Of a DNA stretch of 64,000 bases, positions 3,553 to 54,360 are shown piece by piece. The translations under genes and the position numbers were made by a program. The notes under the pieces were generated by a model, which was given only the letters and a program-made list of their open reading frames with translations, made no database searches and was not told the origin of the DNA. Source of the DNA: a virus; the IMG/VR virus record IMGVR_UViG_3300046542_000291, positions 51,641-115,640 of that record; one strand, written 5' to 3'. How positions within the stretch are numbered: the first letter of the stretch is position 1; every line of letters begins with the position of its first letter.

Positions 3553-3606
3553 ACGTGATCGGAACCTTCGGGTTCCGTTTATGCCCACCAACAAAGAGTA
3601 ACTAAA

Positions 3607-4371: not shown

Positions 4372-4397
4372 CTGGTTGATTTTTCTGTAATAGTATG

Positions 4398-4515: not shown

Positions 4516-6372
4516 ATGCAACTCACACCAGAAATTTTGGCTGTCATCGATACAGCCCCAGAAGAGCGTAAAGAAAGTCTCACCGAACTCATCAAAAACA
4601 CCATCGCAAGCAACCTGGATAAGGATGCTTTGGCTATTGCGCAACACCTTGTGGCCTTTGGCCACTTCCACGACATGACCCGTTCGATCGTACACCCCGA
4701 TGAATTGTGGGATGCGGTCTCTGCGGTCGAGGAAGAGTTGCCTGAATACTGGCAGAGCACATCGGACGCCATCCAGGTCTGCCGCGGTGGCAACCAGATC
4801 ATCACCGAGAAGCTCGGTATCTGGCAAGCAGCCATGGATAAATACCAATCCACTAAAGAAGGTACCATCGATCCAAAGGTCATCTCCCCACTACCAGAAG
4901 AAGCTCCTGGAGACGCTCTCCTGGCTGAGTGCGACGTAACCCCTACCGTTGAGGTGGATAAACATCCAGACCTCTTCCAAACGCCTATCAGCGACGTACA
5001 CAGCTTCATGAAGCTTCTGGACGAAACGTTGAACCGGTATTTCGGCATTGACAACCTCCCAGTTGGCATGATCAGCGATGAACTCGCTCGCCTGGTCCAC
5101 AACAAGCTCTACGAACACTTCCTGGATCGCTACTGGGTAGAAGGCCATAACTACGCTTGGCCAAAGCGTGACCACGTTGAGCTCCGTCCTCGGAAGGTCG
5201 TTCGTATCTTCCTCGATGAGCATGATCCAGCGCCAGATCAAACACTGGCGTTCATCAAGAAAGAACTGGCCAAGTTGGATAAGGTCACCATCCTCGATTT
5301 ACTGAGTAATGGCACCGTCATCGAATGTGACGTCGACCAACCAATCAATGATGCAATCGATTCGGTTGAGTGTGAAGCCACTGCGCTGCCACACGACCCA
5401 CATTCCGATGAAGACACAGCGAAGATGTTGGAAAGTCTGGAGGACCCGTCCAAGTTGTACATGATGAAAGTCGATGGCGAACCCACCATCCTTTACATGG
5501 ATGGCGATGAAGCGGAACTGGCCAAAGAAGTATCGGCCGGTTTGCATAAGGACATCGAACTGCTGGCTGCCGAAGGCGCTGATGCATTGATGTTTGAACA
5601 CGGCCTGATCAGTAACATCCCGGATGGCTTCCCGAACGCCGAGAAATGGCGGACACTCATTCGTGAGAACTGCAGCCGCGCTTTCCGGAAGATCCTTCTG
5701 GAAAACGGTGAGCATGAAGAACTGGCTAAGCTGGATGCAGAAGCTGGCGAGAAAGTAGTTGGTCATATCGCTGGTGCCGAGATCCTCGCTCCAGAGAAAC
5801 CAAGCGAACAAATCGCTCAAGCTTCCATCGTCCCGAATGAACCGCAGGTAGATCCACTGACCTCGTTGGTGGAACCAAAGTTCTATCGTCCACTCAGCCT
5901 GTACGACATTGATCAATTCGATATCCCGGAAGGGAAAACCGAGTTGTTCGAATCGACCTGGAACATGATTCGTCAACCCGACATGCAAGTTTGGCTGGCT
6001 GGTCGTTACGATGTTCCTGATCTGCCATGCACTCCAGCTGACCTGGTTACCGTACAACGCTTCCTGACTCCTGTTCAGGAACACCCACAGCAGGAAGTCA
6101 TGTTCCGTCGTGTGCTGGAAAAGATCGGTGAAGAAGAACCGGAAATCAAGGAATGGTTGGAAAAGCGTGACGCTGCCCAAACTTCCCTGGAGTTCGATCT
6201 GACCGTCACTCCCGAAGGCCGTGCCCGTCAAAAGGTGATTGTACCGGCTGGTGTATCTGACCCACAGACACTGCTGCGTGAGATGGGGGACTTCCTCCAC
6301 ACTGACGAAGGTGTGTTCATGAGTCGTGATGCTGTCGAAGCCAAGTTCGGCGTGAAGATCATCGACGTTTAA
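4516..6372 (+). CDS. large acidic hypothetical protein (618 aa)
   Basis: Long ORF with AAGAAAGGA RBS; Asp/Glu-rich; no motif recognised; terminated by the bidirectional hairpin. Confidence 0.7.
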   Translation: MQLTPEILAVIDTAPEERKESLTELIKNTIASNLDKDALAIAQHLVAFGHFHDMTRSIVHPDELWDAVSAVEEELPEYWQSTSDAIQVCRGGNQIITEKLGIWQAAMDKYQSTKEGTIDPKVISPLPEEAPGDALLAECDVTPTVEVDKHPDLFQTPISDVHSFMKLLDETLNRYFGIDNLPVGMISDELARLVHNKLYEHFLDRYWVEGHNYAWPKRDHVELRPRKVVRIFLDEHDPAPDQTLAFIKKELAKLDKVTILDLLSNGTVIECDVDQPINDAIDSVECEATALPHDPHSDEDTAKMLESLEDPSKLYMMKVDGEPTILYMDGDEAELAKEVSAGLHKDIELLAAEGADALMFEHGLISNIPDGFPNAEKWRTLIRENCSRAFRKILLENGEHEELAKLDAEAGEKVVGHIAGAEILAPEKPSEQIAQASIVPNEPQVDPLTSLVEPKFYRPLSLYDIDQFDIPEGKTELFESTWNMIRQPDMQVWLAGRYDVPDLPCTPADLVTVQRFLTPVQEHPQQEVMFRRVLEKIGEEEPEIKEWLEKRDAAQTSLEFDLTVTPEGRARQKVIVPAGVSDPQTLLREMGDFLHTDEGVFMSRDAVEAKFGVKIIDV

Positions 6373-6373
6373 G

Positions 6374-6424
6374 CAAAAAAAAAATACGGCATAAGGCCAG
6401 CCCCGTTAAGGGCTGGCTTTTATG
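6374..6424. terminator. bidirectional intrinsic terminator at the strand switch (A10 - GGCCAGCCC-GTTAA-GGGCTGGC - TTTTAT)
   Basis: 8-9 bp GC stem flanked by an A-tract upstream and a T-tract downstream, so it can terminate both convergent transcripts (4516..6372 + and 6429..6665 -). Confidence 0.7.
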
Positions 6425-8225: not shown

Positions 8226-8416
8226 GGTGTTCCCCTAGTTACTTGAATAGTAGTTGAAAAAGTACAAACGTAACACAGATAGTCAGTAGTACCCACAAGC
8301 CAATTCGTTGCAGCTTGTCTTTACGCATCTCCCATTGGCGACGCTTAAGTCGCTCTAACAAAACGTTGGTCACAATGTATCTCCAGTTAGTGATACAGGC
8401 TTGAGATTTTTTTGGA

Positions 8417-11750: not shown

Positions 11751-11787
11751 AGATCACCTATTTGCCAAAATTAAAGTGGGACATAAT

Positions 11788-11805
11788 GCCTCCCCGAAGG
11801 GAGGC
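11788..11805 (-). terminator. GC-rich hairpin GCCTCCC-CGAA-GGGAGGC (UUCG loop in minus-sense RNA): putative terminator or RNA-stabilising stem
   Basis: Member of the repeated hairpin family; lies in an intergenic gap between 11960..12382 and 11265..11750. Confidence 0.5.
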
Positions 11806-11959
11806 AAGAAGCGGACCTAGCAACCTAGGACCAGGGGAAGGTCGATTACAATCCCCAAAGTGTACGGACTCGAACCGCACGTGTCACACGCTACATTGTT
11901 AAAGAGCATCGTAAAGGAGCAGAGGTAACCAGGAACCAATAGCTCTATATAATTACACA

Positions 11960-13132: not shown

Positions 13133-13801
13133 TCAGTCGCGATTGAGACAGTTGCCGAACTTTTGTTCTGCTTGGTATTGAATCTTCTTGGTGATGCTGT
13201 CCAACGTACTATCGAAGTTGCACACGAAGTCAATGGTGAAGTTGATCCCTTTGAGGATGTCTTCGCTATTGTCCGTGATGAACTGCGCCAGCTTCTTGTT
13301 GGAATGACCTGTATCAGTTGCTGCGTCTTCCTGCATCCGGGTAAGTAAACGTTGGATTACAGTTGAGTCAGCCAGATCGGCAATCCGGGTAGTGGTCAGG
13401 AAGTAATCGTTGGTGCCCTTATGACGGACAACAAACAAACGACCAGCCCCTTTACTCGAATATTCTTTACGATCTAACAGAAGACTTTCATCGATCAGGT
13501 CCCCTTCCAGCTCTGCAGCCGAGAAACGATGTGGTTGAGTAAGCATCCACAGTTCCAGCTCAGCGCCGCGTTCAATATGTTTAGCCAGCTCCCCGCCAAA
13601 CTGTTTTGGATGACGCCCCATCACCCGACGAATAACGGTGGTCCAATTGTTCGTTTCCGACAACCACACATCGCCAGTGTCCTTGACCACGATAGCGTAG
13701 AAGCCACCGGGGATCTTGGTCTTTGGTGCGGTGGTCTGGCCGGTCCAGTTAGCCATGTAACGCTTCAACACACCACGTGCAGTGTTATAACGGTTGAACA
13801 T
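13133..13801 (-). CDS. putative GIY-YIG-type (homing) endonuclease (222 aa)
   Basis: GFYAIVVKDTGDVWLSETNN...RR...H...E pattern resembles the GIY...YIG...R...H...E core. Basic C-terminal half fits a DNA-binding tail. First gene after a promoter-like motif. Confidence 0.45.
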   Translation of the reverse strand: MFNRYNTARGVLKRYMANWTGQTTAPKTKIPGGFYAIVVKDTGDVWLSETNNWTTVIRRVMGRHPKQFGGELAKHIERGAELELWMLTQPHRFSAAELEGDLIDESLLLDRKEYSSKGAGRLFVVRHKGTNDYFLTTTRIADLADSTVIQRLLTRMQEDAATDTGHSNKKLAQFITDNSEDILKGINFTIDFVCNFDSTLDSITKKIQYQAEQKFGNCLNRD

Positions 13802-13867
13802 GTAATACTCCTAGTTCCTATTGTTCTATTGAATGGTGTAGCTGAGTCTTTCTTTATTTACACGATT

Positions 13868-13876
13868 GTAATATAG
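13868..13876 (-). promoter_or_regulatory. conserved promoter-like motif CTATATTAC (minus sense), 67 nt upstream of the 13801 start
   Basis: One of five near-identical copies, each 25-45 nt downstream of a UUCG hairpin. Confidence 0.5.
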
Positions 13877-13897
13877 CTTTTAAATCACGTCCAATAA

Positions 13898-13917
13898 GGC
13901 CTCCCCGAAGGGAGGCG
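13898..13917 (-). terminator. UUCG-loop GC hairpin (GGCCTCCC-CGAA-GGGAGGC), putative terminator
   Basis: Repeated hairpin family; directly after the stop of 13924..14181. Confidence 0.55.
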
Positions 13918-26669: not shown

Positions 26670-26728
26670 GATAATCCTTATTTACACAAAAAGAAAAGGG
26701 TCCTTGGTGGGACCCTACTCAACACGAC

Positions 26729-27052
26729 TTAATCAACTTCCACGCCAACTTCCGAGATGGAAGCGGTGGAGATGATTTCGGTCGTACCGAATATGGCTTG
26801 GTTAAAACGGTTGAACATGTACTCGTGCATTTCCTCAGAGCGGTCATAAACAATTCCATCCGCTTTGCCATCAATGTGGACAAACCGGTAGGTGACCAAC
26901 TCCGGTAGAAGATGATCAATGGTCAGGACGATCTTTTGAAAGCCGCGCATGTCCACCCCATAAAGAGGAGAACCTTGCCCGAGAATGGTAGTGACATTCA
27001 CAACCTTAGCCGTGAGGTCTTTGTTGAACTTACCGGTAGACTGAGATTGCAT
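26729..27052 (-). CDS. hypothetical protein (107 aa), first gene of a promoter-driven unit
   Basis: ORF-track ORF; GGAG RBS; 35 nt downstream of the CTATATTAC motif. Confidence 0.5.
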   Translation of the reverse strand: MQSQSTGKFNKDLTAKVVNVTTILGQGSPLYGVDMRGFQKIVLTIDHLLPELVTYRFVHIDGKADGIVYDRSEEMHEYMFNRFNQAIFGTTEIISTASISEVGVEVD

Positions 27053-27086
27053 ATGTAACTCCTGTTTTCTGGTTTAGATTCACAAA

Positions 27087-27095
27087 AGTAATATA
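27087..27095 (-). promoter_or_regulatory. conserved promoter-like motif CTATATTAC inside a 41-nt block nearly identical to 42685-42725
   Basis: Same motif as the other copies. Flank TTCAAAGCATTTAAAAGCCTATATTACTTTTGTGAATCTAA is near-identical to the copy at 42685-42725. Confidence 0.55.
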
Positions 27096-27134
27096 GGCTT
27101 TTAAATGCTTTGAATGTACAAAAAGAAAATGGCA

Positions 27135-27158
27135 TAAGGCCTCCCCGAAGGGAGGCTT
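27135..27158 (-). terminator. UUCG-loop hairpin CATAAGGCCTCCC-CGAA-GGGAGGCTTTATG (13-bp stem)
   Basis: Repeated hairpin family; follows the stop of the Big_2 protein gene; T-rich on the minus strand afterwards. Confidence 0.6.
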
Positions 27159-27163
27159 TATGT

Positions 27164-27703
27164 TTAAGCGGTAACGGTAACAGTCTTGTCGACGCTGTAC
27201 TTGCCAGCTTCTGCAACAGTGATAACCGAAGTACCAGCAGCAACACCGGTAACCAGACCGCTCGAAGAGACGGTGGCTTTGGCCGGGGTAGCCGAGGTGT
27301 AGGTTGGAGCAGGGGTGTACGCTTCGCCGTTCTTGGTAACGGTCAGGACGAGTTGTACAGTACCAGCAACAGCAACCGACGGAGTAGCCGGAGCCAGAGT
27401 GGCGACGTATACATCAACCTTTGGCTTCACCGAGAAGGCAACGACAACGCGTTTGGCTTCCTGGATGACTTCCACGTCTTTCCAGCCGGCTGCTTCGATG
27501 GCTTCTTTGAGGGAAGCCTGAGCAGCGGTGGTCAGCTGAACGCCATCGGCGATGACGCGCAGGTTCGGGTTGTCGATTTCGGCGTTGGTGACGTAGTCGA
27601 CGGTAGTTTGTTTGGTCAGGTGAGCATTGATTGCCGCTTCGATAGGACCAACGTCCAGGGCGACGCGGGCAGCAATGGCATCAGCTTTGTTCAGTACAGC
27701 CAT
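27164..27703 (-). CDS. Ig-like (Big_2-type) domain protein, possible virion surface/decoration protein (179 aa)
   Basis: C-terminal ATVSSSGLVTGVAAGTSVITVAEAGKYSVDKTVTVTA is a textbook bacterial Ig-like group-2 motif. Ala/Val/Thr-rich. GAGGAG RBS. Confidence 0.6.
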   Translation of the reverse strand: MAVLNKADAIAARVALDVGPIEAAINAHLTKQTTVDYVTNAEIDNPNLRVIADGVQLTTAAQASLKEAIEAAGWKDVEVIQEAKRVVVAFSVKPKVDVYVATLAPATPSVAVAGTVQLVLTVTKNGEAYTPAPTYTSATPAKATVSSSGLVTGVAAGTSVITVAEAGKYSVDKTVTVTA

Positions 27704-27894
27704 GTTGAAACTCCTCAAATGATGCATTCACAACGAATACATAAGATCAGGTAAAAGCCGCTTCAACGTGGTTAACTGACACCGCTAAGACGGGTCACAC
27801 CCATATAAAAAGTCCCGATGGCTAGCATCGAGAGTGGTCCACGGTATTCAAACGCGAGGACCGCTATCTTGTAAAACATGTTTCGTTCGATCAC

Positions 27895-32833: not shown

Positions 32834-33055
32834 TTACCGTAAAGCTTTTGCCGTAATGAACCTTACATTTTTGGTCCTGGCCATGAAACCTTTTACCCGG
32901 TCAGCCATAGCCCGTATTTCTTCCTTGGAGGGCTCACATGCTCTCTTTGGCAGAAAGGCGCTGTCAGGGTAGTCCACAATCACAAAACCGTTCACAATGC
33001 TTACAGGGCAGTTACCGAGCAACATAGGCCACCTATGAGTTAATGGAAGCAGCAA
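32834..33055 (-). CDS. hypothetical protein (73 aa)
   Basis: ORF-track ORF. Confidence 0.4.
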   Translation of the reverse strand: MLLPLTHRWPMLLGNCPVSIVNGFVIVDYPDSAFLPKRACEPSKEEIRAMADRVKGFMARTKNVRFITAKALR

Positions 33056-34345: not shown

Positions 34346-34864
34346 TTATGACTGTTGAGGGCCAGGTTTAATAGTTTTGAGTTTCTTGATGAGGTCCTGT
34401 TCAATGCCTTCTTCGGCATCGTCCATTAACTCGTCAAGCGTATAAGCGAACATTGACTTGTCGTAGGTGCCTTCCGGCACACGGACGGTATTGGGTACGA
34501 ACAACATCACATCAAACAAATCGTGCTCATCTCGGAACTCGCCTAGATTATGAGCGGTCAGAGTAGAAGAGTGCATCTCACCGTATTTCAGTTCAAAGGT
34601 CGGGCCATCCTTATTGAAGTCTAAGCTCCAATCCTGAAAGGCGAAACCGTAACGATCTGGATCAGCGCGTGCTGTCGTAACGTCAGCATCAGATACGTTC
34701 TTGTAGCTGGCGTATCGATCGAAGAATTCTTTACTGAATGCTGAGACGTAGGCTAATTTTCCATCACCTCCGAAAACATACATCTCTGGGTACACACGTA
34801 ACTCAAGCGGACCGTCGTTGGTTGCCCATACTCCTTTTATGACGACAAGCTTTTGGTAGCTCAT
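34346..34864 (-). CDS. hypothetical protein (172 aa), first gene after a promoter motif
   Basis: ORF-track ORF; AGGAAG RBS; 28 nt downstream of CTATATTAC. Confidence 0.55.
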   Translation of the reverse strand: MSYQKLVVIKGVWATNDGPLELRVYPEMYVFGGDGKLAYVSAFSKEFFDRYASYKNVSDADVTTARADPDRYGFAFQDWSLDFNKDGPTFELKYGEMHSSTLTAHNLGEFRDEHDLFDVMLFVPNTVRVPEGTYDKSMFAYTLDELMDDAEEGIEQDLIKKLKTIKPGPQQS

Positions 34865-34891
34865 AGGAAGTTCCTTTTTGGTTGCCTGGTA

Positions 34892-34900
34892 GTAATATAG
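34892..34900 (-). promoter_or_regulatory. conserved promoter-like motif CTATATTAC
   Basis: Flank CATTTTATTTCAGATCTATATTACTAC is shared with the copy at 52949. Confidence 0.5.
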
Positions 34901-34935
34901 ATCTGAAATAAAATGGAGTAAAAAAGAAAAAAGTA

Positions 34936-34957
34936 AAGGCCTCCCCGAAGGGAGGCT
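34936..34957 (-). terminator. UUCG-loop hairpin GGCCTCCC-CGAA-GGGAGGC(TTTATG)
   Basis: Hairpin family; directly after the stop of 34966..35418. Confidence 0.55.
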
Positions 34958-37025: not shown

Positions 37026-37046
37026 AGGGTTCCCCGAAGGGAACCC
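37026..37046 (-). terminator. UUCG-loop hairpin GGGTTCCC-CGAA-GGGAACCC
   Basis: Hairpin family; after the stop of the 37055..38431 gene. Confidence 0.5.
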
Positions 37047-39681: not shown

Positions 39682-40182
39682 TTACAGCGGTAGGTTTCGT
39701 ACAACAAGTTCAGTTGGAACCGTCTTGCCGGGTTTGAGTGAACCGTCAGTTTCATAACGGTCCATGATTTCCATCATGTAGTACTGGAACGCCAGTTGGG
39801 TAGACATCATCCAACCTGCACCTTTGTCGCCAAACCAGGCCGATTCGGCATGCTGGACAATGAAGTTAGCATCGACTTGAAAGCGAACAGTGTGACTGAG
39901 CTTGCTACCTCGACGACCGGTACGGGTGAAGTCAAAGAAGTGTCCGTGCTCATTACTGAACGCCACGCTGAAACGGAACGACTCAGCTGACTCCGAGGTT
40001 TCACGATCCAACACAGGCATCAACCCACCCAGCATGACCAGGTAACCATGCTGGAGAACAATGTCCAACGTAGCCCTCATGTTTGCCAGGACCATGTTTT
40101 GTACCGGGTTGGAAGCGAGCATTTCTTTGTACTCGAGTTCCGTTCCTTTGAAGCCACAGGCTACCGCTTTTACATAGTCCAT
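39682..40182 (-). CDS. hypothetical protein (166 aa), possibly distantly related to 39229/42182
   Basis: ORF-track ORF; weak similarity over the first ~60 aa. Confidence 0.5.
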   Translation of the reverse strand: MDYVKAVACGFKGTELEYKEMLASNPVQNMVLANMRATLDIVLQHGYLVMLGGLMPVLDRETSESAESFRFSVAFSNEHGHFFDFTRTGRRGSKLSHTVRFQVDANFIVQHAESAWFGDKGAGWMMSTQLAFQYYMMEIMDRYETDGSLKPGKTVPTELVVRNLPL

Positions 40183-40394
40183 GTCAACCCCTTTTCTGCA
40201 ATGATTTCTTTGAAGTACGACATCATTTTTTCGTCGTACACGTCGAATCGGTCGGCGATGTGCAGTGCAGCCATCGTAACGCTCATGCCGTCATTCTTGA
40301 CGTACTTGCGGATGAGGTCGTATTTGAAGATTTGGCACGCGGCATTCCATGGTATCTCGATACCTTTCTCGGGAACAACTTTGTTATTGCTCAT
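40170..40394 (-). CDS. hypothetical protein (74 aa)
   Basis: ORF-track ORF. Confidence 0.45.
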   Translation of the reverse strand: MSNNKVVPEKGIEIPWNAACQIFKYDLIRKYVKNDGMSVTMAALHIADRFDVYDEKMMSYFKEIIAEKGLTWTM

Positions 40395-41166: not shown

Positions 41167-41182
41167 GGGCCCCGAAGGGCCC
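41167..41182 (-). terminator. UUCG-loop hairpin GGGCC-CCGAA-GGGCCC
   Basis: Hairpin family; between 41188..41556 and the next gene. Confidence 0.45.
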
Positions 41183-41187
41183 GTAGA

Positions 41188-41556
41188 TTAATCGTCGCAG
41201 AGAATGCCGATGGAATCGTAGAAGCAAGCGGATGCAGAGCTCCACGATGTACCGTAGAAGCTCTCCAGATCCTCTTCAGAGGCGTTCTTTGTCAGCTCGG
41301 CATACATTGCCTTACCCAGACCAGTACGGCGCGCCTCTGGGCTTACGTAAGACATTACCCAGTAACGGCAGTGAAGCATTACAGCTACCGGTTTGCCATC
41401 CTTCATGGCCAACACGCTGTCTGTCGAAGGGATGTGAAAGTCGTCAGCTAATACCCGGCGAAGAATGAAGCTACGACCCGGGGTGTCTTTGCAGTGCAAG
41501 CCAGCTTCCAGTGCCAGCTGAAGTTTCTCTTCATGAGAGCCTTGATGAAATTCCAT
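41188..41556 (-). CDS. small GNAT-family acetyltransferase-like protein (122 aa)
   Basis: Segment VSPEARRTGLGKAMYAEL matches the GNAT acetyl-CoA-binding motif A (R-x-x-G-x-G/A). Confidence 0.5.
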   Translation of the reverse strand: MEFHQGSHEEKLQLALEAGLHCKDTPGRSFILRRVLADDFHIPSTDSVLAMKDGKPVAVMLHCRYWVMSYVSPEARRTGLGKAMYAELTKNASEEDLESFYGTSWSSASACFYDSIGILCDD

Positions 41557-41635
41557 GTTGATTTCCTAGTTGCGTTTTGATGTGGTGATTATACGGGTGT
41601 AACAAACAGTCGTCAAGCTTTTTATTGCTCCAAGA

Positions 41636-41658
41636 AAAGCCCCCTTTCGGAGGCCTTC
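41636..41658 (-). terminator. GAAA-loop hairpin (GCCTCC-GAAA-GGGGGC in minus sense) followed by T-run: intrinsic terminator
   Basis: 6-bp stem with one G-U, GNRA loop, TTTTCTT after it on the minus strand; directly after the stop of 41664..41864. Confidence 0.5.
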
Positions 41659-41663
41659 CTTAG

Positions 41664-41864
41664 TTACGCACTACGAAGAAGAGCTTCTTCCCGGAGAGCG
41701 TCCCGTTCCTTATCGGAGAGGCTAAATGCAGCCAGTACACGATCAACGGTTTCTTCGGCGGTGTCCTCGGATTCCCCGACTTCACCAACAGCCGCGCTGA
41801 CGATGGAGACCAGATACGAAACACGTACCTGAGTGGACTTGAACAGCAGCTCTTCGTATTTCAT
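41664..41864 (-). CDS. hypothetical acidic protein (66 aa)
   Basis: ORF-track ORF. Confidence 0.45.
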   Translation of the reverse strand: MKYEELLFKSTQVRVSYLVSIVSAAVGEVGESEDTAEETVDRVLAAFSLSDKERDALREEALLRSA

Positions 41865-41945
41865 TTACTTCTTCCTGTTTGCTTGTTTGGAGATTAGATT
41901 TTAAGGCATAGCTCAAGGGGAGTCAACCCTTTTCTTCAACTATTT

Positions 41946-42185
41946 TTATTCCTTACTGATAATGACGCATGAAGTTTCACGGCGGAGACGACCGTCTTCA
42001 GATACGCTCCGATTGCCAATGAGCTTCGTAGGCAAGCCTGCGTGTTGACCACGAGCGTAGTCTTGACACATAGGCAAGGCATCAGGTCCTTCGAACTGCA
42101 AGGTACCTGTCGCTACCATTCCCGGCGGGGGACTGGCCATGTTTCCGATTGTGGTGAGAACGGTGAAGAATGCAACCTTGATCAT
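41946..42185 (-). CDS. small secreted protein (79 aa)
   Basis: N-terminal signal-peptide-like segment. Confidence 0.45.
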   Translation of the reverse strand: MIKVAFFTVLTTIGNMASPPPGMVATGTLQFEGPDALPMCQDYARGQHAGLPTKLIGNRSVSEDGRLRRETSCVIISKE

Positions 42186-42667
42186 CGTCTGGTTCCTTTA
42201 CGGCTGACATTCCCACGGTCAGTGAGAATCTGGGTTAGAATGGATGAGGAGTAATACTGTATCTCTGTGTTGCGTGGTTCACCGTCGACGGTAAAGTCCT
42301 CGTAGATTTTGATGACCAGGTGAGTGAGTACCCGACTGATACGGGCGTAGTTGACCGGGTATGGCTTGAAGGAATCCTGTTGGATCGACAAGACAAACAC
42401 GTTATTGCTTTCTTGTGGGAAGTCCAGCTTTACAATTTCACTCCAACCACTGGTGTGTGCCAGTTGAATGGTAAGGAAGCGAAGGTTGTCTGTGTCATCG
42501 GCCTTTGCATCAGCCAGGATGGTGATCGAATAGTTAGCCTTGCCATCAGGCACGATAGTGTTGAACTTACCATGACGCAGGAACATATCTGCGTAGCCAG
42601 CCAACAGGATCTTTTGCAGAGCAAATTGTAGTTGCCCTAAGTGAATTTCTTTGCTAAACTCTTTCAT
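42182..42667 (-). CDS. hypothetical protein (161 aa), paralogue of 39229..39651; first gene after a promoter motif
   Basis: ORF-track ORF; 33 nt downstream of CTATATTAC. Confidence 0.55.
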   Translation of the reverse strand: MKEFSKEIHLGQLQFALQKILLAGYADMFLRHGKFNTIVPDGKANYSITILADAKADDTDNLRFLTIQLAHTSGWSEIVKLDFPQESNNVFVLSIQQDSFKPYPVNYARISRVLTHLVIKIYEDFTVDGEPRNTEIQYYSSSILTQILTDRGNVSRKGTRR

Positions 42668-42699
42668 ACTGCTTTATTTCCTGGGTTAGATTCACGAAA

Positions 42700-42708
42700 G
42701 TAATATAG
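42700..42708 (-). promoter_or_regulatory. conserved promoter-like motif CTATATTAC inside the duplicated 41-nt block
   Basis: Near-identical to 27071-27111. Confidence 0.55.
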
Positions 42709-42750
42709 GCTTTTAAAACGTTTGAATAGACAAAAAGAAAACGGCATACA

Positions 42751-42768
42751 CCAGCCCCGAAGGGCTGG
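42751..42768 (-). terminator. UUCG-loop hairpin CCAGCCC-CGAA-GGGCTGG(CTTATG)
   Basis: Hairpin family; after the stop of 42780..43124. Confidence 0.55.
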
Positions 42769-44600: not shown

Positions 44601-46001
44601 TTATTCTTCGTCGTCTTTCTTCTTTTCCAAATACTGAGTACTTACAGCTTTAAAGCTGAACACTCGGTCGGTGCACTTGAACACCAGTCCTTCGCGGTAA
44701 GTTTTCTTCGGTTGTTTCGGATCGACATTGAACGCACGCGGACCTTCAGCCATCAGGAGAATATCCTGAATAGTAGTGCCCACCGGAATAACAAACTTCT
44801 CATGCATGACCGGGACGTAAGGAAGGCCGATGGCAGCACATACACCACGAGCTTCTTCCGGCAACAACTCCTGGCTACCATTGCGGTATACGCTGTAGAC
44901 ATGGTATTCAACATCTTCCACGCCTTCGAAGCCAGACTGGATATCTGGACCGATCAGCTCGCCTTGAACAGTGATGTATTCACCTGTCTCTTCCTGGTAC
45001 GCCTTCAGCTTCTCAACCACCTTGTTCTTGGTGACGTAGCGGGTGAAGTTCCGGGAGGTGCTGTCGCCAATACCGGTGTTGGCTTTCCATTCAGGGACGT
45101 GAAGGTTGTTCATACGGAACGCCCATTTGCCATCTTCGTCCTTGAAGAACCACGACTTCGGTTTTAGGAAGTTGCGGTTGCGCGCCAGGAGGGTACCGAT
45201 CCAGTAACGGATCTGATCTGGTTTGGACCATTCCTCGTCACCGATAACCAACTCGTAGTTACGCGAGCAAACGCCAGTACGAACACCACCATCATCCAGG
45301 CAGAATACCGTCATGGAGCTACCGTCGAGTTTCCAGGTAACTTCGAATTCAGTGCCTTCCGCCTTTGCCGCTTCGAACGCGACTGTCTTGTTCTGGATAC
45401 GATCCTGATCAGACTTGAGCAGTTGCTTCGGCCATGGCAGGAGAGCATTACCCACGTTACCGAGGATCTTACGTACCAGACGCATGTACCAGCCAGAACC
45501 AGCTGCAGCCTGTTGCGCCGGCGACATGAGTGGCTTGGCTGCAAACTTCAGGATGCCCAGCTCCAACGTCATGTTGGTTTCAGCTGGAAGGTCTTTGTAT
45601 TTCTCTGGGAGTGGTACAACCAACCCCTGGGCCAGCTCCTTACGAAGACGGAGCGTGCGCAAACGGTGATAAGCCTTACCGTTGATCAGGCGGTTATCGG
45701 AACGGCGTGCCTCGAGGAACCCGAACAGTGGGTTATCGATTGGCAACAGCGAGTCGATCTCGCAGTACACCACACGGTCACCCTTCTTGTATTCGTCCAG
45801 CTTGACCACGCACTGCCAGCCGCCGATGATTGCCAGAGACAAGGCATCAGCATTTGGATGTTTGATCACGTCGTCAAGTACGACGATACGCGCCAGTTTG
45901 CGGTCGGTTTCAACCACCCCGTTCCCCTCACGGATTGGTTTGAGTTCAGCAGCTACATCGGGGGTAGCGGTTGCGACTTCGATCTTTTCTACGACAGACA
46001 T
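44601..46001 (-). CDS. ATP-dependent polynucleotide (RNA/DNA) ligase with an N-terminal OB domain resembling tRNA-binding (Myf/EMAP-like) domains, 466 aa
   Basis: Nucleotidyltransferase motif I WKLDGSS (KxDG) and motif IV EGLVFK. N-terminus (ARIVVLDDVIKHPNADALSLAIIGGWQCVV...KKGDRVVY) follows the HP.AD.L pattern of tRNA-binding OB domains. Confidence 0.75.
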   Translation of the reverse strand: MSVVEKIEVATATPDVAAELKPIREGNGVVETDRKLARIVVLDDVIKHPNADALSLAIIGGWQCVVKLDEYKKGDRVVYCEIDSLLPIDNPLFGFLEARRSDNRLINGKAYHRLRTLRLRKELAQGLVVPLPEKYKDLPAETNMTLELGILKFAAKPLMSPAQQAAAGSGWYMRLVRKILGNVGNALLPWPKQLLKSDQDRIQNKTVAFEAAKAEGTEFEVTWKLDGSSMTVFCLDDGGVRTGVCSRNYELVIGDEEWSKPDQIRYWIGTLLARNRNFLKPKSWFFKDEDGKWAFRMNNLHVPEWKANTGIGDSTSRNFTRYVTKNKVVEKLKAYQEETGEYITVQGELIGPDIQSGFEGVEDVEYHVYSVYRNGSQELLPEEARGVCAAIGLPYVPVMHEKFVIPVGTTIQDILLMAEGPRAFNVDPKQPKKTYREGLVFKCTDRVFSFKAVSTQYLEKKKDDEE

Positions 46002-46017
46002 GTTTCTTCCTTAGGTC

Positions 46018-46266
46018 TTATTGCAAAGGTTTGCAGGTTACAGTGATTTTTGCCATACGGCTCGACAGTGCGCCACCATCGACTCTCGATTCAACGTAGT
46101 CTTTGGTTTCTTTGACGAGGTAAGGCTTCATGCCGTATGTCTCTACGACTTGTTCAATTGCGGCTGGACACGTGTTGGCATCTGACAGTTCTGTGACTGT
46201 TGGTGCACCACCAGGTCCTGCGCCTGTATTGAACGCAAATGCGATAACAAGTAACGCTTTCATCAT
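46018..46266 (-). CDS. small secreted protein (82 aa)
   Basis: Signal peptide MMKALLVIAFAFNTGAG; two Cys. Confidence 0.5.
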   Translation of the reverse strand: MMKALLVIAFAFNTGAGPGGAPTVTELSDANTCPAAIEQVVETYGMKPYLVKETKDYVESRVDGGALSSRMAKITVTCKPLQ

Positions 46267-47546
46267 TACCCCTTAACGCAGAGAACCTGCTTCAGCGTGT
46301 GGACGATCTCGACGAGTTCAGCCTGAGCTGCCATCACGTCTTCGATGTTCTTGTACGCCTTCGGGGTCTCATCGAGCACACCTTCATCTTTACGGCATTC
46401 AACACCAGCCGTATCGCGGATGTGATCTTCGATGGTGAAGTTACGGTTAGCCGCTTTACGCGACATCACACGACCAGCACCATGCGAACAGGAGCAGAAC
46501 GACTCACGGTTGCCCTTACCACGAACGATGAACGACTTCGCACCCATCGACCCTGGGATAATACCCAGAGTACCTTCCTCGGCGTTTACGGCACCTTTAC
46601 GGGTAACCAGAACGTTCTCACCGAAGTGACGTTCCTGGGACACGTAGTTGTGGTGGCAATTGATTGCCGCCATGTCGGTGTCGATTGGCAGGTTCAGGGT
46701 TTTGTGGATCGCCCCCAGAACAGCCTTCATCATGAGCGTACGATTCAGTGCTGCGAAACGCTGTGCCCACGATACCGCCTGCAGGTAGTCGTCGTAGTAC
46801 TTGGTACCGTGTGGCAGGTAAGCCAGATCTTGGTCTGGTAGATGGATAAAGAAACGACCCATCTCTTCCTTTGCCTTGTTGATGAAGTACTGACCGATCG
46901 CATTCCCGATACCACGGGAACCAGAGTGCAGCATTACCCACACACGCTGTTCCTCGTCCAAGCACAGCTCAACGAAGTGGTTACCGGTACCGAGAGTACC
47001 CACATGGTTCCACGCCCGTTGTGCAGCCTTGGTGAGCTTCGGGTGTTTCTCAACGATTTGGTTCAGTTGCGTTCGCAACTTCTCCGCTTCAGCAGCGATC
47101 ATGATGTCCTTGTTATCGAACACAGTCACCTTACCGAAAGCACCACGGTCGTTTGGACCACCGTTGTCAGTACGGCCATGTGGTACTACCGCTTCGATAG
47201 CTGCCCGCAGATGGCCGAGGCTATCTGGCAGTTGGTCTGCACCGAACGTCAAGCGACGAGCGGCCATTCCGCACCCGATATCGACCCCCACCGCAGCGGG
47301 AATGATTGCACCTTTAGTAGCAATGACGCTACCGACAGTGGCACCCAACCCGAAGTGTACGTCCGGCATTACTGCAACGTGCGAATGGATGAACGGCAAC
47401 GACGCCAGGTTCTTCAACTGCTTGACTGCGGTCTCTTCGACTGGAACCCCCACGGTCCAGCCTTTAATCGGCTTCGAACCCGGTTCAGGTTCGCCACCAA
47501 TGATTTCGAAAGACTTATCTTGCTGCTGGGATTTCTTTTGTTTCAT
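46266..47546 (-). CDS. rtcB: RtcB-family RNA ligase (3'-phosphate/5'-OH ligase), 426 aa
   Basis: Blocks HFGLGATVGSVIA, DIGCGMAA, GTLGTGNHFVEL and HSGSRGIGN match conserved RtcB metal/GTP-binding motifs. Confidence 0.9.
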   Translation of the reverse strand: MKQKKSQQQDKSFEIIGGEPEPGSKPIKGWTVGVPVEETAVKQLKNLASLPFIHSHVAVMPDVHFGLGATVGSVIATKGAIIPAAVGVDIGCGMAARRLTFGADQLPDSLGHLRAAIEAVVPHGRTDNGGPNDRGAFGKVTVFDNKDIMIAAEAEKLRTQLNQIVEKHPKLTKAAQRAWNHVGTLGTGNHFVELCLDEEQRVWVMLHSGSRGIGNAIGQYFINKAKEEMGRFFIHLPDQDLAYLPHGTKYYDDYLQAVSWAQRFAALNRTLMMKAVLGAIHKTLNLPIDTDMAAINCHHNYVSQERHFGENVLVTRKGAVNAEEGTLGIIPGSMGAKSFIVRGKGNRESFCSCSHGAGRVMSRKAANRNFTIEDHIRDTAGVECRKDEGVLDETPKAYKNIEDVMAAQAELVEIVHTLKQVLCVKG

Positions 47547-47578
47547 AACTACCTCACGCGGATGGAAAGAGGGTGTAG

Positions 47579-47830
47579 CTAAACGTTGTTTATTTCTTTG
47601 ATGTAAGCAAAGGCCTCATCACGGTAGAAGACATGACCATTATGGTTACCCATGTCCGCTACCGCTTCATTGAGTTCCCTTTCGAACCACCAGTACCACT
47701 CCGGCCCCTTTGGTTGATAACGGGCACACCACTTAGCGTATTCCAGCAAGTTGCATGCACAGTTACCACGAGGGACCTGGGGCTCTTTAGGTGGAGTCTT
47801 ACCAAAGACTCGGCGTAACCATTCGACCAT
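47579..47830 (-). CDS. hypothetical Cys/Trp-rich protein (83 aa)
   Basis: ORF-track ORF. Confidence 0.45.
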   Translation of the reverse strand: MVEWLRRVFGKTPPKEPQVPRGNCACNLLEYAKWCARYQPKGPEWYWWFERELNEAVADMGNHNGHVFYRDEAFAYIKEINNV

Positions 47831-48210
47831 TACGCCACTGCCGCCTCACCAAACGTCAGCTCTTTGTAAAGCTGCGGTTTCGGAGGCATCAGGGTGATAC
47901 CACTGCAAGCACTGAAATGGGCCTGAATGGTTTCGTTGCGTTCCTGGCGGATGTAATCGTAGTTGAACAGGAACCCGTCCAACTCAACTTGATTAATCGC
48001 CTTGGTCGGATCGATGTAACTGGTTTCCCACGGACCAACCTCATGGTTAACCGAATGGAACAGCACACCGGCTGTTTTCTCAGCCAGGGATTGCATCCCG
48101 GTCATGACCTTGGAATAGAAGCGTTCGATCAACAAGCGTTGCTGCTTAGGAGAACTGGCACTCCAGATAGCCGAGCCATAATGTTCTACAACCTGTTCTG
48201 TACGTTCCAT
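47830..48210 (-). CDS. hypothetical protein (126 aa)
   Basis: ORF-track ORF. Confidence 0.5.
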   Translation of the reverse strand: MERTEQVVEHYGSAIWSASSPKQQRLLIERFYSKVMTGMQSLAEKTAGVLFHSVNHEVGPWETSYIDPTKAINQVELDGFLFNYDYIRQERNETIQAHFSACSGITLMPPKPQLYKELTFGEAAVA

Positions 48211-48225
48211 CGGATACCTCTTGAG

Positions 48226-49542
48226 TTATGCCGCTTTGAGAAGGGGCAATGTGGGGATGGATGCAATAAAGGCATCCGGGTCACGGCGATGTTCAAGGAA
48301 CAACGCTTGCAGGTCACAGCCCGCTATGTCCTCGAAACACCCACTGAATTCGTAGGTATGCTCCGGGAACACAACATGGATGTACTCGCGTACTTCTACA
48401 TCGGTCAAGTAACCGATTTCCATCAGGTGGTCCACTCGACCTTTACGAACTACCGCATCATCGATCTTGTCGATGTGGTTGGTAGTCATGAAGATCACCG
48501 TGCCGTTCAGCGAAACCACCCCGTCCAACACGTTGAGCACTTTGCTCAGGGTCAACCGGGAGAACTCTTCGTTCAGGGCTTCGAAGATGTTTGCTTCCGC
48601 AACTTTCTTCTTGGCTGGCGCCGCCGGTAAAGCACCGAGTGTTTCCACCGGTTCAACCTTTGGCTTCTTCGGTGTACGCGCCTTGAAGGCAGCCGAACTG
48701 TCGAAGTCTTCGATCAACACCACCGAGTTCGGGGGCAGGTGACTGAGGGCTTTCTCGAATGACGTATCGTCCATCGAGTTGATGTTGATGGTGCAGATGT
48801 TCTTGCCGAAGTGGGCAGCCAGTGCCTTGATGATACTGGTCTTGCCTGTACCTGGCTTACCGTGGATAACAAACGTCGACTTGTAAGCCATGCCACGTTC
48901 GTTGTACCACTCTTCACTTTCGTAGAACTGTTCCAGCTCGAAGATCAACTTATCCTTCGTAGCTTTGTTCATCGCTACCGTCTTGAGAGGACGCTTCTTG
49001 ATCTCACACAGGTACTGCCAGCCTTGATCACCGGTGTACGTATAGATGCGGGACTTCAGTGAGTTCTCTTTCGGCATGAACGAACTGACCAGGTCCTTCA
49101 ACACTTGTTGATTACGACCCCAGGTGAAAATCGTGACGCGTTCTTTCTCGTTGGTTGACCCTTGACTGTTCAATGCTTCTTTCTTGAACCAGTACAGGCG
49201 TCTCTTATAAACGAAGAAGTGTGTGCCGAAACCAGGGCCTATAATTGTCCGGCTGTTGGGTGACTCCAAGCTGATGTTCCGCGAGTAGCGTGACCAGGGT
49301 TGTTCACAGAACCACTGCATGAAGGACGTGAAGTGAACACGGTCTTCTGACCAAGCGGTGGCGTTGTTGAACGTCAGGCTGGTCATGCATTGTTTCAGTG
49401 TGGCCGAGTACACCGTTTTGGGCACCTGCCGCAGTATCGCGTACAGGAACCCCATTAGGCCAGCAAGGACGATGCCTGCTGCCCAGGGGGAAACCTTGTT
49501 GAATGTCAGGTATTGCTGCTGAAGCCAATCAATAAATTCCAT
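48226..49542 (-). CDS. membrane-anchored AAA+ ATPase, BCS1-like (438 aa)
   Basis: N-terminal TM helix plus a BCS1-N-like region. Walker A IHGKPGTGKTSII, Walker B VVLIEDFD, arginine-finger region. Confidence 0.75.
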   Translation of the reverse strand: MEFIDWLQQQYLTFNKVSPWAAGIVLAGLMGFLYAILRQVPKTVYSATLKQCMTSLTFNNATAWSEDRVHFTSFMQWFCEQPWSRYSRNISLESPNSRTIIGPGFGTHFFVYKRRLYWFKKEALNSQGSTNEKERVTIFTWGRNQQVLKDLVSSFMPKENSLKSRIYTYTGDQGWQYLCEIKKRPLKTVAMNKATKDKLIFELEQFYESEEWYNERGMAYKSTFVIHGKPGTGKTSIIKALAAHFGKNICTININSMDDTSFEKALSHLPPNSVVLIEDFDSSAAFKARTPKKPKVEPVETLGALPAAPAKKKVAEANIFEALNEEFSRLTLSKVLNVLDGVVSLNGTVIFMTTNHIDKIDDAVVRKGRVDHLMEIGYLTDVEVREYIHVVFPEHTYEFSGCFEDIAGCDLQALFLEHRRDPDAFIASIPTLPLLKAA

Positions 49543-49610
49543 GTCACATAGCTCTCTGTGTTAAACCGGCATAGATCGCCCCTTCCCTGGAGCGGTTCTA
49601 TGTTGGGGTG

Positions 49611-51392
49611 TTATGCAGCTTCGCGCAGGGTTGCACGAACTTCTTCGAAGGTCACTTCGTTCGGGAACGTGCCGTCTTTGTAGATCGGACGCAGTTCACC
49701 CGAGTGAGTGTCGAGGTCAGCGATTTCGAACTTCTGCTCTTGGAGCAGCTCAAAGTCACCGGCTTCGTTCTTCACAACCTTCAGGAAGCCCTTGGCCGAC
49801 TTCTTGTTGGTTTCGCCTTCGGTCTTCGGCGCCTTGAACAGCTCAACGAACACGTCGTCCACTTGAACGGCGGTAGCCTTGATGGCGTAGCCGAAGGTGT
49901 CACGAGTGTTGTGCTGATAGGTGTACGAACCGATACCCAGAACCCAGTTGCACGAAGCGAAGCCTTTCTTCATCAGGCGACGCATGATTTCCTGGGTACG
50001 TTCCACAGTGATCGAATCACCGTAGATCAGGCCAACACGTTCGTGCAGCACTTTGAAGCCCTTGTCGGTCATGGTGCCACCGAAAGTGTTCCACAGGCAT
50101 TCCACCGCACCGATCTGTTCGGCGTTCAGTTCTACCGGAGCCCACAGGTAGCCCAGAGCCGTGTAGTACTTCTCGGCGTCTTCAGCACTGATCGGATTTT
50201 CGTAGCGGGTTGCTTTGTACGTCATGCCGTTCAACAGAACGTACTCGACGTCTTTCGCTTTGCCGTTGTTGACCAGTTCGCTGAATTCCAGCGAGTTGTG
50301 AACTTCCACACCGCAGATGACTTCAACAGGATCACCGGAATCCGGACGGAACACCACTTTGGCCAGGCCGTTGGCGTCTGGTTGACGAGCCAGGATTTCT
50401 TCCTTCAGGGAAGGGGCAACAATGGTCAGGACACCCCAGAAGTCGAAGCTGTCGCAGACCAGGCTGATGATGCCAGTAGGACACTTGACGGTAATGGCAT
50501 CCAGGATGAACTGACGCTCGGCCAGCAGTTGCGCTTTGCCGTATGCATCGGGATCGAGGTCACCACCAGTCAGGCCTTTTTCCAGCAGCCACTTGGTCAT
50601 GTTGTACAGGATGTTCGAAGTAGCAACGGCGTGTTCGGTAGCACGCACCGATACAGCCAGGAACTCGACGTCGCTGTTGGCGAAGTACATGTCTTCGGCG
50701 TAGTCGATGGCCGGCAGGGTATCGGTACCCACGAAGCTGGTCAGGTGACCGGCGCCAGTACGAGCAGCATCTTCAGGACCGGACAGGCCACGGAAGGCGA
50801 AGTCATGCCCTTGCAACGCAACGAAGTCACGAGGCGAACCAGTCAGGTCAGCGAAGTGTTCCAGGATGCGACGGTATTCGTAAGCGATGGTGGCGTTGCA
50901 GACCATTTTCCAGATCAGCGACGACATCAGGGTTTCCAGGTAGTTCACTACCCAGAAGAATTCCGGTACGGTGTTGTAGATCACGTAGCCCGGAACGTTC
51001 ATGTTCAGGCGAGAGCCTTCCGGTACCGACAGGATGGTAACCGGTAAGTAACCCAGGTCATGCAGTGCTGCCATGGCTTCGATGTCAACCATACCTTCAC
51101 CGAGGTAGTTCTTCATGCGGCGAGCGTAGCGACGGATCACTTGCTCTTTCGGCTTGCTGAAGAACGAATCGTGCCACAGGCCGTGAACTTCACGCATCAC
51201 GCCTTGGATACCGAACCAGACGACTTTGCTATCCCAGAGGTAGGACTGGGACTTGCTGCCCTTGAACAGACGGTCTGCACGTGGAGTGCCGTTACCGTAG
51301 GCGAAGTTGGTGCCGTTCGGGTACAGAGGGCCGTGACCCATTTTGTAACCGTCTGCTGCAGTCGGGCCAAACAGTTTGAAAGAAGTGCTCAT
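49611..51392 (-). CDS. nadV: nicotinamide phosphoribosyltransferase-family enzyme (NadV/Nampt-like; could be a Namat-type variant), 593 aa
   Basis: Conserved Nampt blocks including VFRPDSGDP and the GS...DSFD region. ORF-track 49611..51443 trimmed to ATG with AAGGAAA RBS. Confidence 0.85.
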   Translation of the reverse strand: MSTSFKLFGPTAADGYKMGHGPLYPNGTNFAYGNGTPRADRLFKGSKSQSYLWDSKVVWFGIQGVMREVHGLWHDSFFSKPKEQVIRRYARRMKNYLGEGMVDIEAMAALHDLGYLPVTILSVPEGSRLNMNVPGYVIYNTVPEFFWVVNYLETLMSSLIWKMVCNATIAYEYRRILEHFADLTGSPRDFVALQGHDFAFRGLSGPEDAARTGAGHLTSFVGTDTLPAIDYAEDMYFANSDVEFLAVSVRATEHAVATSNILYNMTKWLLEKGLTGGDLDPDAYGKAQLLAERQFILDAITVKCPTGIISLVCDSFDFWGVLTIVAPSLKEEILARQPDANGLAKVVFRPDSGDPVEVICGVEVHNSLEFSELVNNGKAKDVEYVLLNGMTYKATRYENPISAEDAEKYYTALGYLWAPVELNAEQIGAVECLWNTFGGTMTDKGFKVLHERVGLIYGDSITVERTQEIMRRLMKKGFASCNWVLGIGSYTYQHNTRDTFGYAIKATAVQVDDVFVELFKAPKTEGETNKKSAKGFLKVVKNEAGDFELLQEQKFEIADLDTHSGELRPIYKDGTFPNEVTFEEVRATLREAA

Positions 51393-51405
51393 TACTTTGT
51401 TTTCC

Positions 51406-52281: not shown

Positions 52282-52332
52282 TACGGTAGCCTTTTGCTAT
52301 GGTCTTGTATTATTCGGGACGCAGGTATTCCT

Positions 52333-52563
52333 TTACGCTGCGACCTGTAACAATGCTGGGTTCCATGGAATACGGCCTTCGAACATCTGTTCACGTTCAG
52401 AGAGTTCGGCCACAGGTTTACGGCCTTCCAGCTTACGCCAGGCCTTATCAAGGTCAGCCATGTGCTTGTCCAGTTCTTTGGTTTTCTTGAGTGTTGCCAA
52501 CTCATAACCACCCGAACCAGGCATCATCATGGTGCCGTCTTTATAGCGGATTGGCTTAGCCAT
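52333..52563 (-). CDS. hypothetical protein (76 aa)
   Basis: ORF-track ORF. Confidence 0.45.
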   Translation of the reverse strand: MAKPIRYKDGTMMMPGSGGYELATLKKTKELDKHMADLDKAWRKLEGRKPVAELSEREQMFEGRIPWNPALLQVAA

Positions 52564-52916
52564 CAGTAACCCACCGAGCGTTGGATGAAGGCGATGAATG
52601 CCGGGAAGTTCTCTTCCATTACTTTAACGATAGTATCGGGATCAGTTTCAATCCCCATGTCGTTATCGTAAAGGGAAGGATCTTTGTAGGTGAAGTGACT
52701 ACCGGAATTGTCAATCCGGAACTCCAGGGTAAGCTTACCCTTCTTCAATGTGTAGGCGGCATAAGCGGTAGATTGACTACCATAATCCAAACGACGGCAT
52801 TGGATGGTTACACCCGAATGCATTTGTGGTTCGGATTGGATCTTGTCCGCTTCTTCCCGGTGGTGAATGATAGCCGCTTTGTAGAGAGCAGCCCACAATC
52901 TGAGTTTATAGTGCAT
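52563..52916 (-). CDS. hypothetical protein (117 aa), first gene after a promoter motif
   Basis: ORF-track ORF; 33 nt downstream of CTATATTAC. Confidence 0.5.
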   Translation of the reverse strand: MHYKLRLWAALYKAAIIHHREEADKIQSEPQMHSGVTIQCRRLDYGSQSTAYAAYTLKKGKLTLEFRIDNSGSHFTYKDPSLYDNDMGIETDPDTIVKVMEENFPAFIAFIQRSVGY

Positions 52917-52948
52917 TACATTTTCCTCTTGGTTTTAGACACAAAGTA

Positions 52949-54357: not shown

Positions 54358-54360
54358 GGT

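Follow-up and report, generated by a model that had tools for sequence, protein, structure and literature searches.

Recurrent hairpin-motif cassettes, very probably phiKZ-type terminators joined to early promoters, in an undeposited jumbo phage

This study concerns a 64,000-nucleotide stretch of viral DNA (positions 51,641 to 115,640 of the IMG/VR record IMGVR_UViG_3300046542_000291), called the window below, in which a GC-rich hairpin with a UUCG loop and a conserved AT-rich motif, CTATATTAC, recur together ahead of genes. We consider it very probable that each such cassette is the junction of two transcription units, consisting of a phiKZ-type intrinsic terminator and an early promoter for the virion RNA polymerase (vRNAP) of a jumbo phage of the Chimalliviridae. 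The cassettes match known elements of phages phiKZ and Psa21, down to identity of the promoter core, and the phage that carries them is kin to both; which polymerase acts, where it starts and that it does so early are assigned by homology. The element is of an already known kind: these are the standard stop and early start signals of phiKZ-like phages, found here in an undeposited relative.

The core motif and its counterparts in phiKZ and Psa21

Exact matches to CTATATTAC number five in the window (13868-13876, 27088-27096, 34892-34900, 42700-42708 and 52949-52957), all on the minus strand. Dinucleotide shuffling predicts 0.11 copies, none of 100 shuffled sequences reached five, and the Poisson probability of five or more copies is about 1e-7. 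The 8-mer TATATTAC returns the same five sites (five exact matches against 0.47 expected). All five copies are intergenic, lying in gaps between minus-strand open reading frames (ORFs) and co-oriented with the genes. From about 6.4 kb on, nearly all genes are on the minus strand and tightly tiled, with gaps making up 6% of the interval 6429-63924; five copies placed at random would all fall into gaps and on the gene strand with a probability of about 2.5e-8. A search for the 9-mer CTATATTAC with one mismatch showed no overall enrichment in the window (9 matches against 5.2 expected), and among these matches only the intergenic one at 61390 is credible.

A previous sequence-only reading of the window had described five units of hairpin and motif on the minus strand, and its coordinates proved right to within a few bases. 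It placed four motif copies exactly (13868, 34892, 42700 and 52949), and its fifth, given as 27087, belongs at 27088. The gaps it reported, 25-45 nucleotides (nt) from hairpin to motif and 28-67 nt from motif to start codon, come to 22-42 nt and 27-66 nt when measured. The shared flanks are as it described them, with TTTAAAAGC present in three copies and ATCTATATTACTAC in two. The three copies can be written TTTAAAAGC(C)TATATTAC-NNNN-GTG. In all five, the seventh base after the final C of the motif is G; the same position is occupied by G in 11 of 11 copies from Psa21 and phiKZ, and in both of two extra copies from the genome under study.

The resemblance to the early promoters of phiKZ, which that reading had noted, is borne out: TATATTAC is the published phiKZ core, listed beside the 201phi2-1 version TTTRARR_BTATATTACDWHDGTG (PMC7058600). 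Within positions 1-50000 of phiKZ (NC_004629) we found seven copies of TATATTAC, all co-oriented and upstream of genes, including the chimallin gene gp54. These copies often stand behind a hairpin, GCCTCCCTTCGGGGAGGC-TTTATG, and an upstream stretch, ATTCAAAC-N-TTTAAAC, as in the window. A 40-kb segment of Psa21 holds four copies, all on the gene strand and three of them behind such hairpins. Outside the window, about 9.6 kb of the genome beyond its right end (stretch L032) carries two more exact copies, at 4400 and 6820, both intergenic, on the gene strand and with G after six bases, one of them behind a GGCCTCCCTTCGGGGAGGC hairpin; the motif thus precedes genes in other parts of the genome as well. 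Beyond the left end of the window, 7 kb with plus-strand ribonucleotide reductase and tRNA genes contain no copy of TATATTAC.

A weight matrix of 52 positions, reaching from 30 nt upstream to 14 nt downstream, was built from the 11 external sites only (seven from phiKZ and four from Psa21) and applied to the window on both its strands. The seven highest-scoring matches are the five CTATATTAC copies (22-42 bits) and two degenerate candidates, against a maximum of 18.4 bits in shuffled sequence. All seven are intergenic, on the minus strand and followed by G after six bases.

Each CTATATTAC copy is preceded by a perfect GC-rich stem of 7-8 bp closed by a TTCG loop, with a folding free energy (dG) of -15 to -16.5 kcal/mol, and each downstream ATG has a ribosome binding site of the GGAG/AGGA type. 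The first genes behind the motifs are small and have no Pfam match, as likewise reported for the early genes of 201phi2-1 (PMC11512511). The cassettes and the two further candidates are as follows.

13861-13916, minus strand: cassette 1; hairpin 13899-13916, CTATATTAC 13868-13876, predicted start G 13861, first gene 13133-13801; matrix score 22.0 bits
27139-27156, minus strand: terminator of the focal cassette; GCCTCCC-TTCG-GGGAGGC, then CTTATGCC and a T-rich run at 27110-27138; perfect 7-bp stem, dG -15.1 kcal/mol
27081-27116, minus strand: putative early promoter of the focal cassette; upstream ATTCAAAGCATTTAAAAGC, core CTATATTAC 27088-27096, 6-nt spacer, predicted start G 27081
26729-27052, minus strand: first gene of the focal early unit; 107 amino acids (aa), no Pfam match, a weak Psa21 homolog at the syntenic place
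34885-34956, minus strand: cassette 3; hairpin 34939-34956, CTATATTAC 34892-34900, predicted start G 34885, first gene 34346-34864; 37.2 bits
42693-42768, minus strand: cassette 4; hairpin 42751-42768 (CCAGCCC-TTCG-GGGCTGG), CTATATTAC 42700-42708, predicted start G 42693, first gene 42182-42667; 40.1 bits
52942-53015, minus strand: cassette 5; hairpin 52996-53015 with an 8-bp stem, CTATATTAC 52949-52957, predicted start G 52942, first gene 52563-52916; 35.2 bits
8383-8397, minus strand: candidate sixth early promoter; degenerate core TGTATCAC at 8390-8397, strong upstream flank AAATCTCAAGCC, G after 6 nt; 30.0 bits
61383-61398, minus strand: candidate seventh early promoter; CTACATTAC, core TACATTAC at 61390-61397, flank TTTCAAGT, G after 6 nt; a one-mismatch match; 24.3 bits

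The focal promoter is the top match of the matrix (41.6 bits) and is 80% identical to the syntenic intergenic region of Psa21; its terminator hairpin lies 7 nt past the stop codon of the gene at 27164-27727, which encodes an Ig-like protein. Since a canonical hairpin with a U-tract (26697-26716) directly follows the gene at 26729-27052, the focal unit may hold this single 107-aa gene. In cassette 4, 39 nt (42689-42727) are 97% identical to phage D6. No hairpin was seen upstream of the candidate at 8383-8397. The T-to-C variant that sets the 61390 candidate apart also occurs in the published motif of phage EL (PMC7058600).

Early promoters and the readings that compete with them

In jumbo phages that encode their own RNA polymerases (RNAPs), early motifs of about 10 nt are AT-rich, strongly conserved, centred near -10 and recognised by the RNAP packaged in the virion (PMC7598289), and the early promoters of 201phi2-1 and phiKZ are conserved at -10, -20 and -30 (PMC11512511). 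The window elements agree with those of phiKZ, 201phi2-1, PhiPA3 and Psa21 in the core TATATTAC, in a TTTAAA-type element near -20 and in an ATTCAAA-type element near -30. They also share with phiKZ-type early promoters the invariant G after a 6-nt spacer and an intergenic, co-oriented position ahead of small genes of unknown function, frequently behind a terminator. For phiKZ and phiR1-37 the mapped start lies 6 nt downstream of the consensus, and for AR9 the promoter is written with (6N)-G+1 (PMC5312081), an offset that we take from secondary statements (PMC7598289, PMC5312081).

Several differences from phiKZ leave the kind of element unchanged. The window has a GC content of 50.6%, against 37% in the phiKZ segment compared and 43% in Psa21; its core has an extra invariant leading C; its flanks fall into two subtypes, TTTAAAAGCC and TTTCAGATC/TTTGAAATC; and a T-rich run separates terminator from promoter, unlike in the phiKZ copies inspected. 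Early promoters of the AR9/PBS1 type, AAATATATATTAT-(6N)-G+1, likewise combine an extended AT-rich element with a 6-nt spacer and a G start, and in AR9 they are read by a virion-packaged multisubunit polymerase (PMC5312081). The AR9 core, however, ends in TTAT where that of the window ends in TTAC, and the AR9 lineage is distant, having a uracil-containing genome and no phage nucleus (PMC7598289). Early transcription that needs neither host RNAP nor protein synthesis is known for both phiKZ and AR9 (PMC7598289, PMC5312081).

By homology with these systems, the cassettes would work as follows. The GC-rich hairpin with its UUCG loop and (C)TTATGYC tail would end the upstream unit and insulate the next one, and the extended AT-rich element would serve as early promoter for a split multisubunit vRNAP that is packaged in the virion and delivered into the cell together with the DNA. 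ATTCAAA would form the -30 element and TTTAAAAGC the -20 element of the three A-type copies; TATATTAC, common to all five, would sit at -14 to -7. The vRNAP would bind the -30, -20 and -10 elements and start transcription at the invariant G that follows the final C at a distance of seven nucleotides, that is, at the five minus-strand positions listed above. Such a start could be made early, with no need for host polymerase or new protein synthesis, and the predicted transcript would run from a leader of 21-60 nt through an operon of small genes of unknown function to the next hairpin.

Several points weigh against this interpretation. Start sites, timing and rifampicin independence are ascribed to the phage by analogy. 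Comparison of the window ORFs with the 50-kb phiKZ and 40-kb Psa21 segments revealed no gene for vRNAP, non-virion RNA polymerase (nvRNAP), chimallin or PhuZ within the window. In 201phi2-1 only six transcription start sites carried the early motif (PMC11512511), and therefore not every copy need be active. Finally, two of the five copies also satisfy a minimal sigma70 geometry.

This last point bears on the possibility that the motif is the -10 element of host sigma70 promoters and that the units are transcribed by bacterial RNAP. TATATT is identical to TATAAT at five of six positions, and in cassettes 3 (34892) and 5 (52949), the TTTCAGATC/TTTGAAATC copies, TTTACT lies 17 nt upstream; this weak match, TTTACT-17-TATATT, scores 9/12, exactly the threshold of our scan, which demanded a -35 hexamer 16-18 nt upstream of the -10 hexamer and covered three 20-kb stretches. 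The sequence-only reading had stated that the motif does not fit a sigma70 geometry, which holds for three copies but not for the two with the ATCTATATTACTAC flank, which just reach this minimum. The other three have no -35 hexamer at 16-18 nt, their nearest TTGTAC or TTGTCT lying at 20 nt. Moreover, the invariant leading C, the trailing AC and the G after 6 nt are features of phiKZ vRNAP promoters and not of sigma70 promoters; sigma70-like sites fall below the shuffle expectation in the three stretches (6 against 18.2, 13 against 15.8 and 10 against 15.4); phiKZ reportedly transcribes its genes without host RNAP; and near-consensus sigma70 promoters that do occur in the window, at 41.6-41.9 kb, look quite different. 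We rejected the host promoter reading as extremely improbable.

We regard as very unlikely, too, that the motif belongs to a middle or late promoter class read by nvRNAP. The phiKZ middle motif AAanTTACc does have TTAC in common with TATATTAC, and TATG, the core of phiKZ late promoters, is present in several of the hairpin tails. Yet in phiKZ the middle class has a weak motif with its centre at -24, and the late class no more than TATG at the start site. The window element instead shows the pattern by which the early class is defined, long and strongly conserved at -10, -20 and -30, and phiKZ has identical copies ahead of early genes, gp54 among them.

A further proposal, compatible with the early-promoter interpretation, would make the cassettes mainly portable recombination repeats that shuffle early-gene modules, with promoter and terminator activity secondary. 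T4-type early promoter/stem-loop cassettes (PeSL) offer a precedent: they are recurrent units of promoter and stem-loop that flank small early genes in a plastic region, use host sigma70 promoters and have been proposed to mediate shuffling. In the window, the copies share 70-100 nt, beyond the core; two assembled contigs of the Logan collection end inside the 27.1-kb cassette, where the repeat is long enough to break assembly; and near the 52.9-kb cassette the gene order departs from that of Psa21. The window cassettes give no sign of concerted evolution. Identity between copies within the genome is 67-81%, against up to 81% across genomes, which leaves no sign of gene conversion or recent spread; Psa21 and several uncultured relatives have the cassette in the syntenic position behind the Ig-like gene; and conservation of the cassettes tracks the published -10/-20/-30 promoter pattern. 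As copies of one genome resemble each other no more closely than copies of different genomes, we rejected spread by gene conversion or as a mobile cassette, and a primary role in recombination seems to us highly implausible.

The terminator family

Mapping of 61 termination sites by ONT-cappable-seq gave the phiKZ terminator consensus BCCYCCCCHWWDGGGRRGGBYTTATKYYGT, and bidirectional terminators of the same kind have been described for that phage (PMC10914365). The commonest terminator motif of 201phi2-1 strongly resembles the phiKZ one, and in vivo function was shown for eight selected terminators of 201phi2-1 (PMC11512511). The focal hairpin, GCCTCCC-TTCG-GGGAGGC followed by CTTATGCC, fits the phiKZ consensus. 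A GC-rich stem-loop directly followed by TTAT(K)YY is found in four of the five cassette hairpins, the exception being 34939-34956 (CTTTAC), and in at least six stand-alone hairpins, among them these:

11787-11806, minus strand: stand-alone terminator; TGCCTCCC-TTCG-GGGAGGCA and TTATGTCC; no early promoter after it
37027-37046, minus strand: stand-alone hairpin terminator with a TTCG loop; GGGTTCCC/GGGAACCC
56554-56571, minus strand: stand-alone terminator; GCCTCCC-TTCG-GGGAGGC and CTTATGTC
61897-61914, minus strand: stand-alone terminator; GCCTCCC-TCCG-GGGAGGC and GTTATGTC
6396-6417, both strands: bidirectional terminator between convergent genes; 8-bp stem, TTATG on both strands (CTTATGCC on the minus strand, TTTATGTC on the plus strand)

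Hairpins with TTATGYC and no early promoter also occur on the plus strand, at 1006-1021 and 3560-3577, and the stand-alone copies are always oriented with the local genes. The family thus shares with the terminators of phiKZ and 201phi2-1 a GC-rich stem of 7-8 bp, a 4-nt loop and a TTAT(G/T)YC tail in place of a long U-tract, as well as its position after genes on whichever strand codes, with a bidirectional copy between convergent genes. It differs from them in that the loop is almost always TTCG and in that one cassette (34939-34956) has CTTTAC instead of TTAT.

At the syntenic place behind the Ig-like gene, shared by Psa21 and several uncultured relatives, the hairpins differ by compensatory paired changes (GCCTCCC/GGGAGGC, GCTTCCC/GGGAAGC and GCCTCTCC/GGAGAGGC). 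Among 13 hairpins of the window, five of the seven stem positions vary on both sides, and the loop and the two closing C-G pairs are fixed; this count is descriptive only, since the hairpins were picked for their complementarity.

We considered whether TTATG is merely the lower AU part of the stem, paired with an upstream CATAA. This is true at 27.1 kb and 61.9 kb and fails, as judged by eye, at 11787-11806 and 56554-56571. Because TTATG is kept where the pairing fails, it constitutes an independent sequence motif.

The tail reads TATG(Y)C in seven of about 12 hairpins, including some, such as 11787-11806, in which it is unable to pair with the upstream flank. In phiKZ late promoters, TATG with its G as +1 is the only known core. 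Some junctions might conceivably be three-way switches, with a stop of the upstream unit, a restart of nvRNAP at TATG and an early start of vRNAP at TATATTAC; we think this very unlikely, because the model phiKZ late promoter P119L has no hairpin upstream of its TATG. If it were true, the downstream operon would be expressed continuously, as in AR9. The broader proposal that hairpin plus TATG forms a general late promoter was rejected on the same ground.

The source phage and other signals in the window

That the window derives from a relative of phiKZ, as the sequence-only reading had supposed, is supported by gene content. Twenty-nine of its ORFs match the 40-kb Psa21 segment collinearly, with 25-65% protein identity. 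The best matches of its RNA ligase are Pseudomonas jumbo phages of about 300 kb: D6 (62%), RVTF4 (59%), Psa21 (59%), PhiPA3 (56%), Phabio (53%) and 201phi2-1 (40%). Chimallin homologs are present in Psa21 and D6, and the genome papers of both report PhuZ and phage RNA polymerases. Because of the collinear Psa21 homology, the RNA ligase matches and these hallmark genes of the relatives, the source is, judging by sequence, an undeposited and diverged member of the PhiPA3/Psa21 branch of phiKZ-like (Chimalliviridae) phages.

In a megablast search of 50,697 phage records, the only matches were short and coincided with cassettes (Psa21, 80% over 27078-27253; D6, 39 nt). No relative in IMG/VR is closer than 63% protein or 74% nucleotide identity. 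In that collection, 23 stretches contain the 17-mer TTAAAAGCCTATATTAC; most belong to viral contigs of 300-317 kb, and none is from the genome of the window itself. Exact window proteins are encoded on three Logan contigs of SRR26076635, of 13.7, 63.7 and 95.9 kb; the contigs of one SRA sample that carry window proteins total at least about 180 kb, and an identical RtcB lies on a contig of the 0.2-1 Mb class. Contigs of SRR26076635 with window proteins end at repeats, two inside the 27.1-kb cassette (27096-27163) and one at the bidirectional hairpin 6396-6417. Evidently, repeated regulatory cassettes fragment short-read assemblies of the phage.

The main use of these results is annotation: they identify the window as an early-gene region, by homology, of an undeposited jumbo phage of the phiKZ/PhiPA3/Psa21 type, whose best identity to any GenBank phage is about 62% for the protein tested (RNA ligase), and they predict early start sites to the single nucleotide (five, possibly seven) and supply about a dozen putative terminators. 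Promoter and terminator are nearly unchanged in a genome of 50% GC whose coding sequence has diverged beyond nucleotide recognition, and can therefore serve as inexpensive markers of this phage type in metagenomic data. The understanding of how these phages transcribe their genes stays as before.

The only phiKZ match of the window ORFs, within the 50-kb phiKZ segment, is weak: a 74-aa ORF (40170-40394, minus strand) resembles residues 310-375 of gp55 with 32% identity (E 3e-5, computed against the window alone). In phiKZ, gp55 is a beta-like subunit of the nvRNAP; the window ORF may be a fragment or domain relic. A bacterial Ig-like (Big_2) domain is present in the 187-aa product of the gene just upstream of the focal cassette (27164-27727, minus strand). 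The Psa21 and D6 homologs of this protein carry the annotation 'major head protein', apparently a wrong label, considering how small the protein is and that the region is of early type.

Between cassettes, the minus-strand interval 44601-57952 holds genes for RNA ligase, RtcB, a BCS1-like AAA ATPase, nicotinamide phosphoribosyltransferase, ribose-phosphate pyrophosphokinase and thymidylate synthase. This is a nucleotide, NAD and RNA-repair cluster that extends past the right end of the window, where genes for a Thg1-like protein, dCTP deaminase and NAD-dependent DNA ligase follow (L032, 1-3827).

Two modules of host sigma70 type lie inside the operon that begins at the 42700 cassette (41167-41926, minus strand):

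41926-41898, minus strand: sigma70 module 1; TTGACT-17-TAAAAT, then a 66-aa gene (41664-41864) and a hairpin with a U-tract
41616-41588, minus strand: sigma70 module 2; TTGACG-17-TATAAT (11/12), then a 122-aa GNAT acetyltransferase gene (41188-41556) and GGGCCCTTCGGGGCCC-TTTTCTTT at 41182-41167

Upstream of the homologs of the 66-aa gene, Psa21 and D6 have TTGACA-17-TAAACT and TTGACG-17-TATTAT, so that TTGAC and the 17-nt spacing of this module are kept in both phages while the spacers themselves are unrelated. Outside the window, the loci concerned are at about 33017-33045 of stretch L001 and about 11903-11931 of stretch L026. In a lineage said to do entirely without host RNAP, such modules come as a surprise; they are more unusual than the cassettes, as is the recurrent motif described next.

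A second recurrent motif, GTAATA[GC]TAT[AG], is found on the plus strand in intergenic DNA at 1812-1822 and 4387-4397 (0.22 expected in the window), and twice more just outside the window (stretch L033, near 4590 and 6100). It sits ahead of tRNA genes and of a 618-aa gene (4516-6372) and may be a promoter of another class. A gene for tRNA-Trp (CCA) lies at 2438-2513 on the plus strand, and a weaker tRNA-like sequence at 2064-2134, also plus, scores 25.8 bits against the Rfam threshold of 29. Both lie in an 880-nt non-coding stretch, and further tRNA genes are situated just beyond the left end of the window.

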